Positions 27,190-63,161 of a stretch of DNA of 64,000 nucleotides are shown piece by piece. The notes beneath the pieces were generated by a model, which had not been told where the DNA came from, did not search any database, and worked only from the letters and a program-made list of their open reading frames with translations. The position numbers were made by a program, and so were the translations under genes. Position 1 is the stretch's first letter; each line of letters opens with the position of its first letter. The stretch comes from an uncultured Spirochaetota bacterium. Its GTDB lineage: Bacteria; Spirochaetota; Brevinematia; Brevinematales; JAOACQ01. The stretch covers positions 320,001-384,000 of the forward strand of contig CAWIGG010000002.1 of assembly GCA_963835575.1 (NCBI GenBank), read 5' to 3'.

Positions 27190-27303
27190 GAATGACCTCC
27201 TCTGAAAATGGCCCGCTATTTTAAAAAATCCCGAATGATCACTGCGAATTCCTTTGGTTTCCCTATAACTGAATCAAGCCGCAGAATGGATCCGGCAGGT
27301 TCT

Positions 27304-27514
27304 CCACAAGTGACACGGAAAATTACTGAATTATTTTTATTAATAAAGACCTTTGCACAGTAAACTTAAGATAATTCGCTGCCTGATAAAACTTAAGGCA
27401 ATAAATTGCCGCTTTAAACCGGACTTTTGCACGGTTTCTATTTAATTATCCGTTAATGGTTTGCGGAAACCGTGCAAAAGTCTTTAATATTTATTATCTG
27501 TGAAATTCTGTGGC
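27304..27514. repeat. Gene-less GxxExxY-type periodic inverted-repeat element, interrupted by a MITE
   Basis: CCACAAGTGACACGGAAAATTACTGAA ... TATCTGTGAAATTCTGTGGC; the reverse complement of the right arm matches the arm at 57248 at 19/20. Confidence 0.65.
27346..27484. mobile_element. MITE with IS5-like ends
   Basis: AAGACCTTTGCACAGT ... ACCGTGCAAAAGTCTT, flanked by TAATA on both sides; extra internal end copy GACTTTTGCACGGTTTC. Confidence 0.6.
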
Positions 27515-40325: not shown

Positions 40326-40592
40326 CCCGCGAATCACGCGAATTATACGAATCGGGAAATTATTCACAACAAAGATTCACTAACTATGGATTTTTAAGTT
40401 TATTTAGTTGCTTTTTAATCTTATAATAGCTATCTATTAAAATATGGACTGTATTTAAAATATTGAAGACTGAAGATCTAAAAACACCCAAATAATTCCC
40501 CAACAATTCTTTGTGGTTCTTGGTGTCCTTTGTGTCCTTGGTGGTGAATATATTGCTTTTCATTATTTGCATCTATTAGCGTTATTAGCGGG
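40326..40592. repeat. Nested pair of 9-10-bp-periodic inverted-repeat elements
   Basis: Outer CCCGCGAATCACGCGAATTATACGAAT / ATTTGCATCTATTAGCGTTATTAGCGGG; inner TATTCACAACAAAGATTCAC / CTTTGTGGTTCTTGGTGTCCTTTGTGTCCTTGGTGGTGAATA (40361-40550). Confidence 0.7.
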
Positions 40593-49766: not shown

Positions 49767-50774
49767 TTACTGGCAGAGCGGGAACTGGACCCCGATGCTG
49801 GCCCCCGCCCCGTTATTATCCGAAGCCGGTATCGTACCGTTGACTGAGCGGCCTTCGATATCTGTTAAAGTGCATATTGTATTGCCGGGAATGGTTACGC
49901 CGAAATCCCAAAAACCGTTGGATAGGGTGCCTGTATGGGTAGTTCCATTAACAACTACTGATGCTGATGCTATGGGGAGTACGGCGTTTTCGAAATAAAG
50001 CTGGCCGGAATAGGTGCCGTTGAAATGGCAGATGATATTGCCTGTTGCGGGGCAGAGGACCGATTTCCATGTGACCCCTGATTTGATATCATCGCCGCTG
50101 TTCGTGCCTACAAGAGCCGCGAATGCCGCGACGCTCAGATTAAGATGTCCGGTCAGAGCAATGGAGTAATTATCAACAACTGTCGCGATGATGGATTTGC
50201 CGCCGTAGGTAATCTGGACGCATAAACCGCAATTAGCGCCCTGACCGAAATTCGGTATTGCCGCGAAATAATTGGGGTTTACGGCATTCAAAACCGAATC
50301 AACATTCCCGTTGGAGCTCCCGACGCTGATATTCGTCAATTCCGTGCCGTAATATGCGCAGGCGGTTTTATAATAAGTTGTTCCTCCGATAACCGTTGTA
50401 GGCGTACCCATTCCGAAATAATAATAAGTCAATTCGCCGTTAGAAGAGCTTGGGCCGCCTGGATATGTACATGTGCTGGCACTGGAGCCGGATGAACTGC
50501 TGCTTGAACTGCTGGAGCTTGAGATACTGCTATTGGCGCTGCTGAGACTGCCGGAGCTGGAGATGCTGCTGACGGCGCCGCTTGAACTGCTGGAAGCGGG
50601 CAGACTGCTTATTGAGCTGCTTGAACTACCTGAACTGGGGATACTGCTGACAGCGCTCACGCTATGATTATTATTGCCGTTATTATTACCGCCGAGATTA
50701 ATTGTAACGGCGCATTTCAAAAAGCAGATAACCAAAATTGCTGAAAAAAGAATAATCAATACATTGCTTTTCAT
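49767..50774 (-). CDS. Expansin-like lipoprotein A (Ser-rich linker, DPBB domain, CBM63-like domain)
   Basis: YFAAI, CGLCVQITYG.KSIIATVVD, HLNLS..AF..L, VTWKSVLCP..GNI. Confidence 0.75.
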   Translation of the reverse strand: MKSNVLIILFSAILVICFLKCAVTINLGGNNNGNNNHSVSAVSSIPSSGSSSSSISSLPASSSSSGAVSSISSSGSLSSANSSISSSSSSSSSSSGSSASTCTYPGGPSSSNGELTYYYFGMGTPTTVIGGTTYYKTACAYYGTELTNISVGSSNGNVDSVLNAVNPNYFAAIPNFGQGANCGLCVQITYGGKSIIATVVDNYSIALTGHLNLSVAAFAALVGTNSGDDIKSGVTWKSVLCPATGNIICHFNGTYSGQLYFENAVLPIASASVVVNGTTHTGTLSNGFWDFGVTIPGNTICTLTDIEGRSVNGTIPASDNNGAGASIGVQFPLCQ

Positions 50775-51221
50775 AATGACCTCTTTTTAACTCTCCGCTG
50801 CTGTTATAATTATTATTGCCCGCCTTTTTTACAATTTTTTTATCTATAAAAGTATCACTGTAAGATGCTTTTGTCAAATAATAGAAAAACCAAAAAACAC
50901 TTCATATATAATAGTGTTTATAATCCGGAATTTTGTAATTATTTATAAAAATATTCTTTTCACTTGTCATTGATAAGATAATAATGGAAGGATTTCTGCC
51001 GTTTGCCCATTATTATGCCCTTCGGGCTACATGCGCACAATCTCTCACTGCATCGCTCGGGGACCGCAGGGGAGATGCTGGTATTGCTTATATTTTGCAT
51101 AGAATAAGGATTTTAAACCTTCGATTTTTTTATCCAAATCTGAAAAAAGGCGGCGATAATCAATATTGTGCTATTTGAAAATATCAAATTTTATGTATCA
51201 ATATGGTTTTCGATGTTAAAA

Positions 51222-52331
51222 TTACAGACAGCCGGGGAACTGAACGCCCGAATTGGCCCCAGTCCCGTTATCCGTACTGCCAATGGTAAAACTGACCGAG
51301 TTGCCCTGTATGTCCGTTAAAACGCATGTTTTTCCTGCGGCGGCGCTGCCGGCGTCCCAATAAGCGTATTGGCTGCGCGTGCACACATAACCGTTTATTG
51401 TCACGGACTGGACCGGGGAGATTGTGTTTTCGAAATAAAGCTGGCCGGAATAGCCGTTGTTGAAATGAAAAATAATATTGCCCGTCACAGGGCAGGGCAC
51501 AAATTTCCAGGTTGTTCCCGTAACATCCTCGGATGAATAGCCGAGGGCCGCATAGGCAGAAGCGCTTAAATCAATATGTCCGGCGGTGGAGCATGTAACA
51601 CATTCATCAACAATGGTTGCGGTTATTGTGCTGCTTCCATGAGTGATTTCGACGCATTCTCCGCCATGATTGATCCAGCCGGACATGGCAGCTGAAATAG
51701 CGGCGAAATAATTGGTATAGGCTATATAATTTATGGTATCGACCGGGTAGGACGGCGTATTTGAACATAAGGTTACTTTATTAGTCGTTTCGGTTCCGCA
51801 ATAACCGAAGAATGTCTTATAGCTCGGACAGCCGCTGCCCGTGGCCGTCCCCTGCCCGAAATAATAGGCTGTAAATTCTCCTGTGCCCGCGGCCGGCGAC
51901 CCCGGAAAGGAGCATGCTGTAGCGGTACTGCTGGAACTTGGAACACTGCTGCTAAAGCTGATGCTGCTCATCGAACTGCTGGTAATTAGGCTGCTGGCCC
52001 CGCTGCTGACACTGCCGGAGCTGAGAATACTGCTGACAGCGCTGCTGCTAATGCTGACACTGGCTGTAGAACTGCTGATAATGAGACTGCTGCTGTTTCC
52101 AGAACTGCTGATACTGCCGGCACTCCCGATAGAACTGCTGCCGGTACTGATTATACTGCTGTTAAGGCTGCTGCTGACGCCGGTTGAACTGCCTGCGCTA
52201 TTGCTGACAACACTGCTGTTATGATTGTCATTGTTGTTATTATTATTGCCATTCCCGGGCGTATAAGAACAATACGAAAAAAAGACCGCTAAAATAATAA
52301 AAAACAGAGAAAAACATGCCGTTCTTTTCAT
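51222..52331 (-). CDS. Expansin-like lipoprotein B (Ser-rich linker, DPBB domain, CBM63-like domain)
   Basis: YFAAIS, GECVEIT...TITATIVDECVTC..GHIDLS..AY.ALG, TWKFVPCPVTGNI. Confidence 0.8.
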   Translation of the reverse strand: MKRTACFSLFFIILAVFFSYCSYTPGNGNNNNNNDNHNSSVVSNSAGSSTGVSSSLNSSIISTGSSSIGSAGSISSSGNSSSLIISSSTASVSISSSAVSSILSSGSVSSGASSLITSSSMSSISFSSSVPSSSSTATACSFPGSPAAGTGEFTAYYFGQGTATGSGCPSYKTFFGYCGTETTNKVTLCSNTPSYPVDTINYIAYTNYFAAISAAMSGWINHGGECVEITHGSSTITATIVDECVTCSTAGHIDLSASAYAALGYSSEDVTGTTWKFVPCPVTGNIIFHFNNGYSGQLYFENTISPVQSVTINGYVCTRSQYAYWDAGSAAAGKTCVLTDIQGNSVSFTIGSTDNGTGANSGVQFPGCL

Positions 52332-53271: not shown

Positions 53272-53466
53272 AACAGGACGCGCCGCATTCGAACCGCGGT
53301 CTTTAAAAGAAAGCCTTTATCAATCCCGGAAGCCGGCGGGTATGAATCATTCCTTCCATTCTTTGTCAATAAAAAGAAATTTGTCTTCTTCAAGCTCATG
53401 TTCAATAGCCTGTTTTTGAATATAAACTATATGATTGAACATATCCTTTTCGCTTTTAATCAAATG

Positions 53467-55141
53467 TTGCCTGTCGGTTTTTATAACATGCTTCATGGAC
53501 ATACGGCAGGGTTCCCGTTAAAATAAAACGGGAGAAAAAGATGGCAAGATTTGAAAAGAACAGCCTGGAGCAGGGTGAGTTCCTCGCGATCAATATAGGC
53601 GAGCAGTTTGATGAGAATTCCAGAGAATTTATACTAAAAGAATTCATCAAAAACCGTATTAAACTGGAGGATTTCGCGGCTTACTATAAGAACGACCATA
53701 GAGGCAGAGAGATTAAAAATCCTCGGGATGTGATCTGTGCGGTACTCTACGGTTACATTACGGGAAATCGTATCAGCCGAAAGATAGAAGATTTGCTGAA
53801 AAAACACATTGGGTTTATGTATGTTTCAAACCGGCTGAAAATTGACCATTCGGTAATTTGCGAGTTCAAGGTACTTTTTCAGGAAAAGATCGAGGAGTTG
53901 TTCAGCCAGCTTTTATATATACTCAACGAAATGGGGTCTATAGATTGGGACATGGTAGTGGGTGACGGCACAAAGATCAAGGCCTACGCGAGTAAGAATA
54001 AGAATGTGGGAAAGAAACATACCCGGAAGCTGATGGACACTTACCAGAAGATGGCGGAAAAGATTGTGAAACAAGACCTGGAACTGGAAGAATCTTACCG
54101 GGAAGGCAAGCTGGAGCAGCCTTATTACGAAGCGGAGAAGAAGCGGGTATCAAGGCGGAAAAAGATTTACGATAGTGTTTTGAACCAAATCGATGAATAC
54201 AAAAAACAGGTAGAGAGAGGGGAAAAGACAGACGAAGAATTCACCAACCTGACTGATCCCGAAAGCAAGCTGATGTCTGGAAATCCGCATAGTGTGTTTA
54301 TACAGGGATATAATTCGGCGATGATGGTCAGTAATAATGATGTGATTATAGATTTTGAAGCAATCACAACACCGGAAAAACAGCATACGGAAGAAATGGT
54401 AAAGAGGGTGGAACAGAAAAAAGCGGAATTAAAAGTTGATAAGGCTAGCAAATACCTTTTTGATTCGGGTTTTCAGGACATGGAAGAGACAATCCGGATG
54501 GTGGAGGAAGGAAAAGACCTTTATGTGGATACGAAAGAGCGGGATTTCAGTGATAAATCACAGAAGCGAAGAGACTTTAAACTGGAAAAGATTGATGACG
54601 AATATATCCTGGGATGCCGGGGCGGCCGTAAGGAAAATGGGTATTTAGATCGAAATAACCAAAGATATACATTTTTGTATTCACGGAAGGGCTGTGAAAG
54701 ATGTCCATTTTTCAGTGAGTGTTATAAAAACATCAAACCGAAAACACAGCAAAAGACAGTAATTTTCAGTGAGTTTGAATTGAATAATCGGTCTAAGATT
54801 GATGCTTATTTAACAAAACTTTACAGCGAAGAAGGGCAAAAGATATACAACCGCAGGATAGGTAAAGAACACGTATTTTCAAACATCAAAACACAGAAGG
54901 GTTATGTTCAGACAGTTTACAGAGGTCAACGGAAAGTGAATTTGGAGCTATGCTGGGTATCCCTTGCGCATAATTTTATGAAATATGCCCAATATTTGAG
55001 AAAATAGAGAGGATTTTGTATAGTCTGAGTATCGATTATTCGAAATTTATTATTAAAATCAGCTAAGCTGACAAAATTTTTATTTGCCCGCTTATTGTAA
55101 GGGGCTGGTTTGACTCCGAAAATGAAATAACCGACAGGCAA
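53467..55141 (+). mobile_element. IS1182-family insertion sequence, copy 2 (1675 bp)
   Basis: IR TTGCCTGTCGGTT; 4-bp duplication AATG (53463-66 and 55142-45). Confidence 0.93.
53541..55007 (+). CDS. IS1182-family transposase (protein identical to 24651-26117)
   Basis: Same 488-aa translation in the ORF track. Confidence 0.9.
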   Translation: MARFEKNSLEQGEFLAINIGEQFDENSREFILKEFIKNRIKLEDFAAYYKNDHRGREIKNPRDVICAVLYGYITGNRISRKIEDLLKKHIGFMYVSNRLKIDHSVICEFKVLFQEKIEELFSQLLYILNEMGSIDWDMVVGDGTKIKAYASKNKNVGKKHTRKLMDTYQKMAEKIVKQDLELEESYREGKLEQPYYEAEKKRVSRRKKIYDSVLNQIDEYKKQVERGEKTDEEFTNLTDPESKLMSGNPHSVFIQGYNSAMMVSNNDVIIDFEAITTPEKQHTEEMVKRVEQKKAELKVDKASKYLFDSGFQDMEETIRMVEEGKDLYVDTKERDFSDKSQKRRDFKLEKIDDEYILGCRGGRKENGYLDRNNQRYTFLYSRKGCERCPFFSECYKNIKPKTQQKTVIFSEFELNNRSKIDAYLTKLYSEEGQKIYNRRIGKEHVFSNIKTQKGYVQTVYRGQRKVNLELCWVSLAHNFMKYAQYLRK

Positions 55142-57208: not shown

Positions 57209-57246
57209 AATTCCTCCAGAGATACTACTTAATAAAGAATTATACC

Positions 57247-57768
57247 AGCCACAGAATTTCACAGAAAATCACAGATTTAAACGTATGTCCATAAAACAAT
57301 TCTTATGATTGGCAGTTCAGTGTATTTCTGTGTGATTCTGCGGCTAACCCGATTTTCCAATAGAAATTTCCAGAATTAAAATATTAGCCTTTTAAATTCA
57401 CACTTCATTCTTCCGAAATTTAATAATAATCCAATTCTTACACCTGTAGCTTTTAAATAGTTTAACAATTGAGCTTCGTGGATTTTATTATAATATTCTT
57501 CGGTCTTAATTTCTATGATAACTTTTTTTTCAATAAATAGATCGGCAAAATAATCGCCGACAATTTTATTCTTGTATTTCACTCTTATTGGATATTCTTC
57601 CTCTGTTTGAATATTCTTCAGTTTTAATTCATAAATCAGGCTTTTTTTATATATTTTCTCTAAAAATCCATATCCCAATATTTTATATACTTCAAAAGCG
57701 GTTCCAATGATTTTTTCTGTCAACTCTGGATATAAAAATTCCGTGCTTTTCTGTGTCATTCTGTGGCT
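57247..57768 (-). mobile_element. Putative GxxExxY nuclease-carrying element bounded by 10-bp-periodic inverted arms
   Basis: Left arm AGCCACAGAATTTCACAGAAAATCACAGA; internal arm 57316-57345; right arm TTCCGTGCTTTTCTGTGTCATTCTGTGGCT; both ends recur at 62999-63127. Confidence 0.6.
57376..57759 (-). CDS. GxxExxY protein (PD-(D/E)XK nuclease superfamily)
   Basis: 127 aa; LGYGFLEKIY, ADLFIE.KVIIEIK, AQLLNYLKAT, GLLLNFG. Confidence 0.93.
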   Translation of the reverse strand: MTQKSTEFLYPELTEKIIGTAFEVYKILGYGFLEKIYKKSLIYELKLKNIQTEEEYPIRVKYKNKIVGDYFADLFIEKKVIIEIKTEEYYNKIHEAQLLNYLKATGVRIGLLLNFGRMKCEFKRLIF

Positions 57769-57794
57769 CCAAAAAAATCAAATAAAGCGGACGA

Positions 57795-60504: not shown

Positions 60505-60536
60505 GATACTATCGTTTTTTGCAGAAAACTGAGTAA

Positions 60537-60628
60537 TCCGCTAATTCACGCGAATAAAACGCGAATAAAATTTAATAATTTGTATAAAACAGACTCTATA
60601 TTAGCGTGAATTTGCGCGGCTTAGCGGA
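60537..60628. repeat. Gene-less periodic inverted-repeat element (CCGC(G/T)AAT type)
   Basis: TCCGCTAATTCACGCGAATAAAACGCGAATA ... TATTAGCGTGAATTTGCGCGGCTTAGCGGA. Confidence 0.7.
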
Positions 60629-60669
60629 AGACCTAAAAAATTTAAATAAAATTAATTGAGGGGATAATA

Positions 60670-62963: not shown

Positions 62964-63161
62964 TTTTCACAGGAAGACATGAGGCGCCAACGGGGGTAAG
63001 CCACAGAATTTCACAGAAACACACTGAAATAAAAAAATTTAATAAGAATTATTCGTAATAAATAGTTCTAATATTTTTAAATAAATTAAAAAAAACAATT
63101 CCGTGCTTTTCTGTGTCATTCTGTGGCCGGAATCTGTCCTTTCGTTCCTTCCTGTGGAAAA
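62964..63161. repeat. Empty GxxExxY-type element (62999-63127) nested in a second inverted-repeat element
   Basis: Inner ends identical to 57247-57267 (21 bp) and 57737-57767 (31 bp); outer TTTTCACAGGAAG / CTTCCTGTGGAAAA. Confidence 0.8.

Follow-up and report, generated by a model that had tools for sequence, protein, structure and literature searches.

A gene for a GxxExxY protein lies between inverted repeat arms in the window, the 64,000-nt stretch of DNA analyzed here, which is part of a 4.39-Mb, 94%-complete assembly of 7 contigs. The features are listed in Table 1. The gene was assigned to its family by PF13366 (E value of 1.7e-39, 135 bits against a cut-off of 22) and by TIGR04256 (E value of 2.6e-39, 134 bits against a curated cut-off of 35), and its GC content is 26.6%, compared with 48–49% in the neighboring genes. 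An earlier note on this DNA had described an AT-rich gene for a 127-aa protein between inverted three-unit arms, a perfect terminal 11-bp inverted repeat between the two outer arms, a third, internal arm, and a protein whose first residues (MTQKSTE) are encoded by the arm, with a GGAG that overlaps the arm terminus; each of these was found as described, the GGAG being 7 nt upstream of the ATG. The arm-encoded N-terminus was also present in about 14 homologues at 69–71% identity. PF13366 was the sole Pfam match of the element's gene, in agreement with the earlier statement that no DDE transposase or HUH gene is attached.

Table 1. Coordinates of the GxxExxY element and of related repeats in the window.
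Feature	Position	Strand	Remarks
GxxExxY (PF13366/TIGR04256) gene	57376..57759	-	127 aa; putative catalytic E34, D73, E83, K85, Q97-x3-Y101; T14 is the candidate specificity residue
Gene-upstream arm, family A	57739..57768	-	three units, 10-bp period, A at arm position 11; provides ATG and first codons
GGAG ribosome-binding site (putative, from spacing)	57764..57770 (approximate)	-	overlaps outer arm end
Internal third arm	57316..57345	-	direction and subtype as upstream arm
Gene-downstream arm	57247..57276	+	T at arm position 11
Whole inserted interval	57209..57794		from stop of 471-aa gene to ATG of beta-helix gene
Gene-less family-A pair	62999..63127		downstream of tex; AT-rich unique interior
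Split family-A pair	27277..27514		left arm interrupted by 24-nt insert (27288–27311); another palindrome in interior
Gene-less pair of sister family C (CGCTAA/CGCGAA units)	60533..60632		upstream of tex
Single arm of sister family D	40510..40549	-	

The order at the locus is arm, gene, arm, spacer and inverted arm, and the internal and left arms form a gene-less pair of 99 bp by themselves. From this layout the locus may be either a gene cassette in which a second arm is nested, or a gene and arm joined to a pre-existing 99-bp pair. The flanking genes are 586 nt apart here, an interval that takes in about 27 and 38 nt beyond the arms, and 9 nt apart in the congeners G001 and G002; in both, the downstream gene has the same N-terminal motif, and the downstream match was confirmed by tblastn in G002 only. 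In G004 and at a second locus of G001 the upstream homologue was found close to other genes, and no match was obtained in G003. As judged from these junctions, the element was shown to be an insertion in this lineage.

The arms belong to a repeat family (family A) that is dispersed through the genome. A profile with a GC and three C-R-C-N-G-A-A units as conserved positions, a 10-bp period and variable linkers gave 78 matches genome-wide and 0 in two local shuffles. A generic three-unit pattern gave 394 matches, against 49 on the reversed sequence, among the matches listed. Short units and a genome assembled from a metagenome could speak for chance repeats or an assembly artefact, but both counts, together with the same design in several phyla, refute this and leave it a negligible probability. 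The strict family-A pattern was matched 58 times in this genome and not at all in 60 relatives, four congeners among them. Two of 69 arms were located inside open reading frames of at least 150 aa, although such frames cover 81% of the genome. Family-A copies are mostly gene-less inward pairs, and 23 of the 24 inward pairs of less than 400 bp span 79–142 bp. A bias of orientation relative to transcription was unseen among 10 co-directional family-A pairs (counted by eye). The matches of a promoter scan were set aside as AT-rich noise.

Both ends of the focal element recur in the pair downstream of tex, identical over exactly 21 and 31 bp as first reported, and the 31-bp identity is the longest run among 2346 pairs of the 69 arms. 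The description of this pair as a copy of the element holds for the arms; its interior does not come from the gene cassette, and it is one of 23 short pairs. The degenerate copy placed earlier at 27304–27514 was recognized as a copy and its start moved to 27277, the left arm being split by the insert. By fuzzy search the 24-nt REP-like insert was detected at 11 places in the genome; four are inside family-A arms, at the same place directly after the first unit, and at others of these places it lies within other arm types. A separate palindromic element with GACTTTTGCAC ends, at approximately 27345–27487, was also observed inside the degenerate pair.

The interiors of family-A pairs are 80% AT, compared with 68% in ordinary spacers. 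They are no more alike than shuffled sequences (similarity of 14.6 against 14.3 ± 0.3), which is unlike recent copy-paste, and BLAST gave no match of interiors as pieces captured from their own genome. The absence of a target duplication, already noted for the focal element, was borne out, the best direct repeat being 2.57 nt in 21 pairs and 2.50 nt in shuffled flanks, and no outward extension of the inverted repeat was found in family-A pairs. An arm with T at position 11 (T11) was joined to a non-T11 arm in 17 of 21 family-A pairs (10.4 expected, p = 0.003), and the two arms within one element were no more alike than arms from different elements; left and right arms therefore spread together as pairs. 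By the same comparisons, the arms are kept for their sequence, not for perfect pairing. Local homogenization of arms was not detected, near pairs scoring 23.5 and far pairs 23.1 of 29 (p = 0.21).

Rule-based sorting of 390 arms assigned 129 to family C, 61 to family A, 59 to family D and 47 to family B, with 94 in five minor families or unsorted. Adjacent inward pairs were of the same family in 72 of 81 cases. The genome holds nine PF13366 matches, all beside arms, of four kinds, and each of the four large families has a matching GxxExxY gene; for the five minor families no matching gene was found in the 94%-complete assembly. At the junction occupied by the family-C pair of the window, no such arms were found in G001, G002 or G004. 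The left and right arms of family-C pairs were observed to be strongly different.

Arms outside the short pairs form 20 long inward same-family pairs and one outward pair (3 expected). The long inward pairs enclose GxxExxY genes, IS256- and IS110-family transposases, an SDH-type protease and orphan genes, and a decayed GxxExxY gene was found within family-B arms. At one locus (L333, G000:C4:995640-997600, G000 being the genome of the window) several arm families enclose an AT-rich DUF2971 gene, nested in one another as mirror images; this gene matches the PADLOC candidate defence model PDC-S31. Inserts within family-A pairs were noted at two further loci (L335 and L334; G000:C2:1975463-1976994 and C6:281345-283051), namely an IS256-family transposase and a second insert of 1.7 kb. 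The one PF05635 gene in the genome, which encodes a four-helix bundle (G000:C6:2000-2600), is bordered by a long array built from another heptamer pair, a design that parallels the combination of gene and repeats in the GxxExxY elements. The excess of long inward pairs, several of them with unrelated genes inside, the four-helix-bundle gene with its own different arms, and other cargo at a site in genus g37 (in G404) would all be consistent with the arms being hairpin cassettes of a general kind that host processes spread, with GxxExxY as the commonest passenger and the arm type tracking the protein tree by linkage. This explanation is held to be unlikely, on evidence from other genomes given below.

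Filled and empty alleles, as anticipated earlier for a mobile element, were found at three places: the focal junction, the gyrB–rpmB junction and a site in genus g37. G001, G003 and G005 lack the gene-less pair that lies between gyrB and rpmB, and G002 has a different repeat at this junction (L342), with heptamer-repeat arms and a REP-like insert. A family-A pair in G000 and other arms in G002 mark this junction, by their sequences, as a hot spot used independently. Synteny was not conserved at the glyA junction, and the junction downstream of tex has different neighbors in the congeners. Among the 24 genomes of g37, one junction measures 240 bp in five and contains a GxxExxY cassette in nine; G404 has arms around another gene, and the other nine are more distant or have other DNA. 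The filled site holds four protein lineages, 53–77% identical between lineages and one of them inverted, within flanks that are about 80–92% identical. Genomes with a filled site and genomes with an empty one are dispersed over the host tree, the branch support being mostly weak. In the empty form, two overlapping stop codons meet at the junction, which includes a single unit-like word and could represent a target or a scar of loss; the five identical empty junctions may be losses and not pre-insertion sites. A direct repeat of about 12 bp at some g37 alleles is ambiguous as a target duplication.

GxxExxY genes of other genomes were collected in two sets. The first set comprised 262 genes from 287 loci, 232 with full flanks, and was enriched for relatives of the query; the fresh set comprised 127 genes from four sampled phyla and five centre genomes, of which 120 entered the arm count. 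Inward three-unit arms flanked the gene on both sides in 100 of the 232 cases and in 4 in the reversed control, so that the arms are found with GxxExxY genes elsewhere, as had been proposed. In the fresh set the corresponding counts were 38 of 120 and 4, and at least one arm was present in 82, against 14 in the control. The arm sequence was also found to co-vary with the protein phylogeny, a relation that the earlier note had proposed to look for (99 subtype changes against 181 when shuffled), and the nearest relatives of the focal protein, other phyla included, have the same arm subtype. Other periodic words are present in many clades that were scored as having none (41 of 68, on inspection by eye); that clades lacking the C-R-C-N-R-A unit have such words instead argues against GxxExxY as a mere passenger of the arms. 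The 'helical-turn' periodicity suggested for the arms is not a general rule, the period ranging from 8 to 11 bp by clade. PF13366 matches occurred in 112/401, 36/101, 48/101, 27/101 and 59/101 sampled genomes of five phyla (27–58%). In viral contigs, no relatives were found with the single protein as query and one with an alignment. One GxxExxY clade (L104, L281, L021, L319 and L294) was seen to have, in contrast to the three-unit arms, a longer inverted repeat on its flanks that is non-periodic and begins with CACGGATT, and other clades use CAGGAT or GGAGAT words, some of them outward-pointing.

All alignment columns were scanned against the fifth base of the unit, and column 14 was first picked from that scan. 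Thr14 was present in 139 of 160 genes with G-type arms and in none of 30 with A-type arms (72 of the 262 genes were without a classifiable arm); Ser at this residue occurs with both bases. The prediction was made beforehand for the fresh loci, in which Thr14 was found in 46 of 61 G-type and 0 of 27 A-type genes (8 mixed, 31 unclassified). In a joint tree of 274 genes, built with residues up to 16 excluded, base 5 of the unit changes 31 times; Thr14 is present in 0 of 35 A-type clades and in the nearest G-type neighbor of 22 of these 35. Well-supported branches gave only 7 independent pairs, 5.3 as predicted and 0 against, with a median p of 0.06. The codon of residue 14 is outside the arm and both states occur within this one genome, so neither overlap nor host bias explains the coupling. 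Linkage does not predict a residue that excludes a base across 31 changes in a tree made without that residue, which further weakens the passenger explanation. The coupling favors direct recognition of the arms as the simplest reading, and gives specific support to the earlier proposal that the protein recognizes, and presumably binds, its arms. As a separate observation, the GPGLLE form of the family motif accompanies a G after the unit and the GxGFLE form a T or A, largely at clade level.

The abundance of arms is linked to the gene, again as had been proposed. Of 401 genomes of the window's phylum, those with at least 40 excess arms were called arm-rich, and a PF13366 match was found in 34 of the 37 arm-rich genomes against 78 of the 364 others, close kin among them being not independent; the 34 became 31 when 13 weak matches were dropped. 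The trend was also seen within the genera g37 and g69, and in g37 the arms numbered 26–230 in the 8 genomes in which the gene was found and 0–58 in 12 others (p = 0.0006). G025, G252 and G338 are arm-rich genomes without a PF13366 match (G252 and G338 were searched save about 5 kb each). In G239 the excess arms number about 380; they belong to several families and form inward pairs (L376–L389), and no intact GxxExxY gene was found in the assembly of this genome, which has 220 contigs.

The protein may recognize the arms while their movement depends on something else (a Y1/RAYT transposase, a tyrosine recombinase or host recombination); GxxExxY would then have another role at these sites, for example in resolving hairpins, in addiction or in marking self DNA. 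So divided, the roles would explain the link between residue and base without strand transfer by GxxExxY and would suit G239, the long residence at one g37 site, the many tyrosine recombinases in the genome, and a Y1-transposase-like gene that adjoins nested arms on one side. No such gene, however, is consistently flanked by arms (neither of two Y1 matches had inward arm pairs within 600 bp), amplification in this genome concerns the families that have a resident gene, and arm number in g37 is higher where the gene was found. A separate mover is the main rival reading, at odds of roughly one in a handful.

In ORF-bearing 23S rRNA intervening sequences, which lie in rRNA and are removed by RNase III, and with four-helix-bundle genes, a small gene occupies the loop of a long, imperfectly paired hairpin. 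The GxxExxY element resembles them in this respect; it differs in its position between protein genes, in its protein and word, and in having no RNA-pairing covariation. An element of this kind could act as RNA, with the arms forming extended imperfect stems that undergo processing or stabilization within operon mRNA, and the protein acting on RNA. Arm pairs do fold into long stems, the orientation of family C agrees with that of transcription in 18 of 23 co-directional cases and opposes it in 5 (p = 0.01), and in one of six tallies the co-directional pairs of the genome had more G-U than A-C (52 against 31, p = 0.03). In 159 gene-carrying elements, however, G-U was not in excess (164 against 141, p = 0.21). 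Within families A, B and C, random arms resemble each other more than do the two arms of one element, 32 of 85 pairs are located between divergent and convergent genes, and Rfam gave no credible match in the window and none at gathering score in 20 loci. Action as RNA is accordingly rated below even the passenger explanation. The Rfam leads Flavo-1 and Acido-Lenti-1 were discarded on their alignments (PMC2864571).

The AlphaFold model of the protein has a pLDDT of 89.7. Its best Foldseek match was the Cas4 protein SSO0001 (E value of 1.7e-5), followed by lambda-type exonucleases; a wide fold search gave no Z score of at least 8, with I-Bth0305I and XisH at 5.2–5.4. A sequence search of the PDB gave nothing under an E value of 1, and PADLOC gave no match for the protein. 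In the 262 genes, D73 is conserved in 262, E83 in 259, K85 in 260 and Q97 in 260. The model thus predicts the fold of a hydrolytic RecB/Cas4-like nuclease. PD-(D/E)xK enzymes are hydrolases, so the joining step needs another factor; we know of no strand-transfer chemistry in a RecB/Cas4-like fold. Motifs II, III and QhXXY of Cas4 and RecB-family nucleases (PMC4176176, in the part available) are matched by D73, E83-x-K85 and Q97-x3-Y101, an assignment made by sequence pattern and fold and not by residue-level superposition, and the likeness to SSO0001 and Pcal_0546 extends to the fold. Unlike Cas4, the protein has 127 aa and a single cysteine (C120), so no four-Cys Fe-S cluster, and neither cas genes nor a CRISPR array adjoin it.

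The reading that we prefer, with a probability of about 0.6, is an element like RAYT/REPIN that uses a different enzyme, its movement being what we infer from an insertion, a paired spread of arms, family-specific genes, an invariant active site and a residue–base coupling, as demonstrated by comparison of sequences. The focal locus would be a gene-bearing member of a widespread group of small selfish elements, designed as two inverted arms of three C-R-C-N-R-A units each around an interchangeable interior. Several copies of the protein would bind the three units of an arm cooperatively, with the N-terminal helix (T14) reading base 5 of the unit. The arms would be brought together as duplex, cruciform or hairpin and then cut by the RecB/Cas4-type active site, and host repair or recombination, not the nuclease, would join the arm-bounded piece. 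AT-rich intergenic DNA or the loop of an older element would be the targets, with loops preferred. Only the arms would be needed, so that interiors could decay, be replaced or acquire other genes, and gene-less pairs would be served in trans. The term 'autonomous' used for the element in the earlier note is not supported as it stands: strand-transfer chemistry is not known for this fold, interiors are unrelated, other genes are enclosed by arms as well, and G239 has arms with no intact gene found. No intermediate was seen, the one sequencing run with a weak match covering just the IS1182-like element and scraps of the window. The fuller claim, which we hold to be slightly better than an even chance, is that GxxExxY genes drive a large undescribed mobile class with a minimal RecB/Cas4-type nuclease, a residue-to-base code (position 14 among others), arm pairs spread in trans, nesting and cargo capture.

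REPINs are inverted doublets in extragenic space, each family beside its own enzyme gene (PMC3116915; PMC3733652), and each of their units is a short palindrome tagged with GTAG or CGTC (PMC3733652), as described in the available parts of these papers. To that extent the GxxExxY elements share with them inverted extragenic doublets, several families per genome each with its own enzyme gene, lineage-specific expansion, heterodimeric left and right partners and a proposed mobilization in trans. They differ in that the enzyme is a PD-(D/E)xK nuclease and not an HUH Y1 tyrosine transposase, in that the arms are a direct array of a 7-base unit without palindrome or GTAG/CGTC tag, and in that the gene itself is present in several copies, orientations and sites. 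The parallel drawn earlier with RAYT/REPIN therefore stands for the workings (inverted extragenic doublets and a cognate gene), not for the enzyme or the repeat structure. The other parallel, with IS/MITE pairs, is not supported as drawn: terminal inverted repeats and gene-carrying and gene-less forms are common to both, but there is no DDE enzyme, no target duplication was found, and the interiors are not homologous, so that copies lack whole-length homology. Small nucleases linked to mobile DNA, with joining left to other factors, are also found among PD-(D/E)xK homing endonucleases and the helpers TnsA and XisH. Unlike these, the GxxExxY gene has no intron, intein or partner transposase, and its putative target is the element's own repeated arm. 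Unlike integron cassettes, the arm profile has no attC RYYYAAC/GTTRRRY cores (by eye), and no match to the IntI integrase model TIGR02249 above cut-off was found in the genome.

PF13366 is listed as 'Unknown' in the accessible portion of PMC3424549, and the mention of GxxExxY in the available text of 10.1101/2021.01.26.428298 concerns CRISPR reverse transcriptases. No description of such an element was found in the accessible text of a bioRxiv preprint (10.64898/2026.10.21.760802), nor one of GxxExxY arm elements in the literature searched, a body that for the most part excludes subscription journals. The element is real and of an apparently undescribed class, with new evidence for recognition of the arms by the nuclease. 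With a cognate DNA site and a residue that is a candidate for specificity, the function of the PF13366 family becomes testable. If GxxExxY drives the movement, this would be mobile DNA run by a hydrolytic nuclease without DDE, HUH or recombinase chemistry. It would also account for the intergenic repeats that go unannotated by the hundred in each genome (about 390 arms here) and for hot spots where foreign genes collect, and would provide a 127-aa nuclease whose target varies naturally.

Two other regions of the window were noted. Two tandem Ser-rich secreted proteins, which resemble expansins, are encoded at 49767–52331; the one that was scanned had no Pfam match. An IS1182-like transposase, below the NCBIfam cut-off, is located at 53541–55007. 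Contigs of an independent run are identical to this region and stop at 53465 and 55141, so that these positions are probably the ends of the IS1182-like element.
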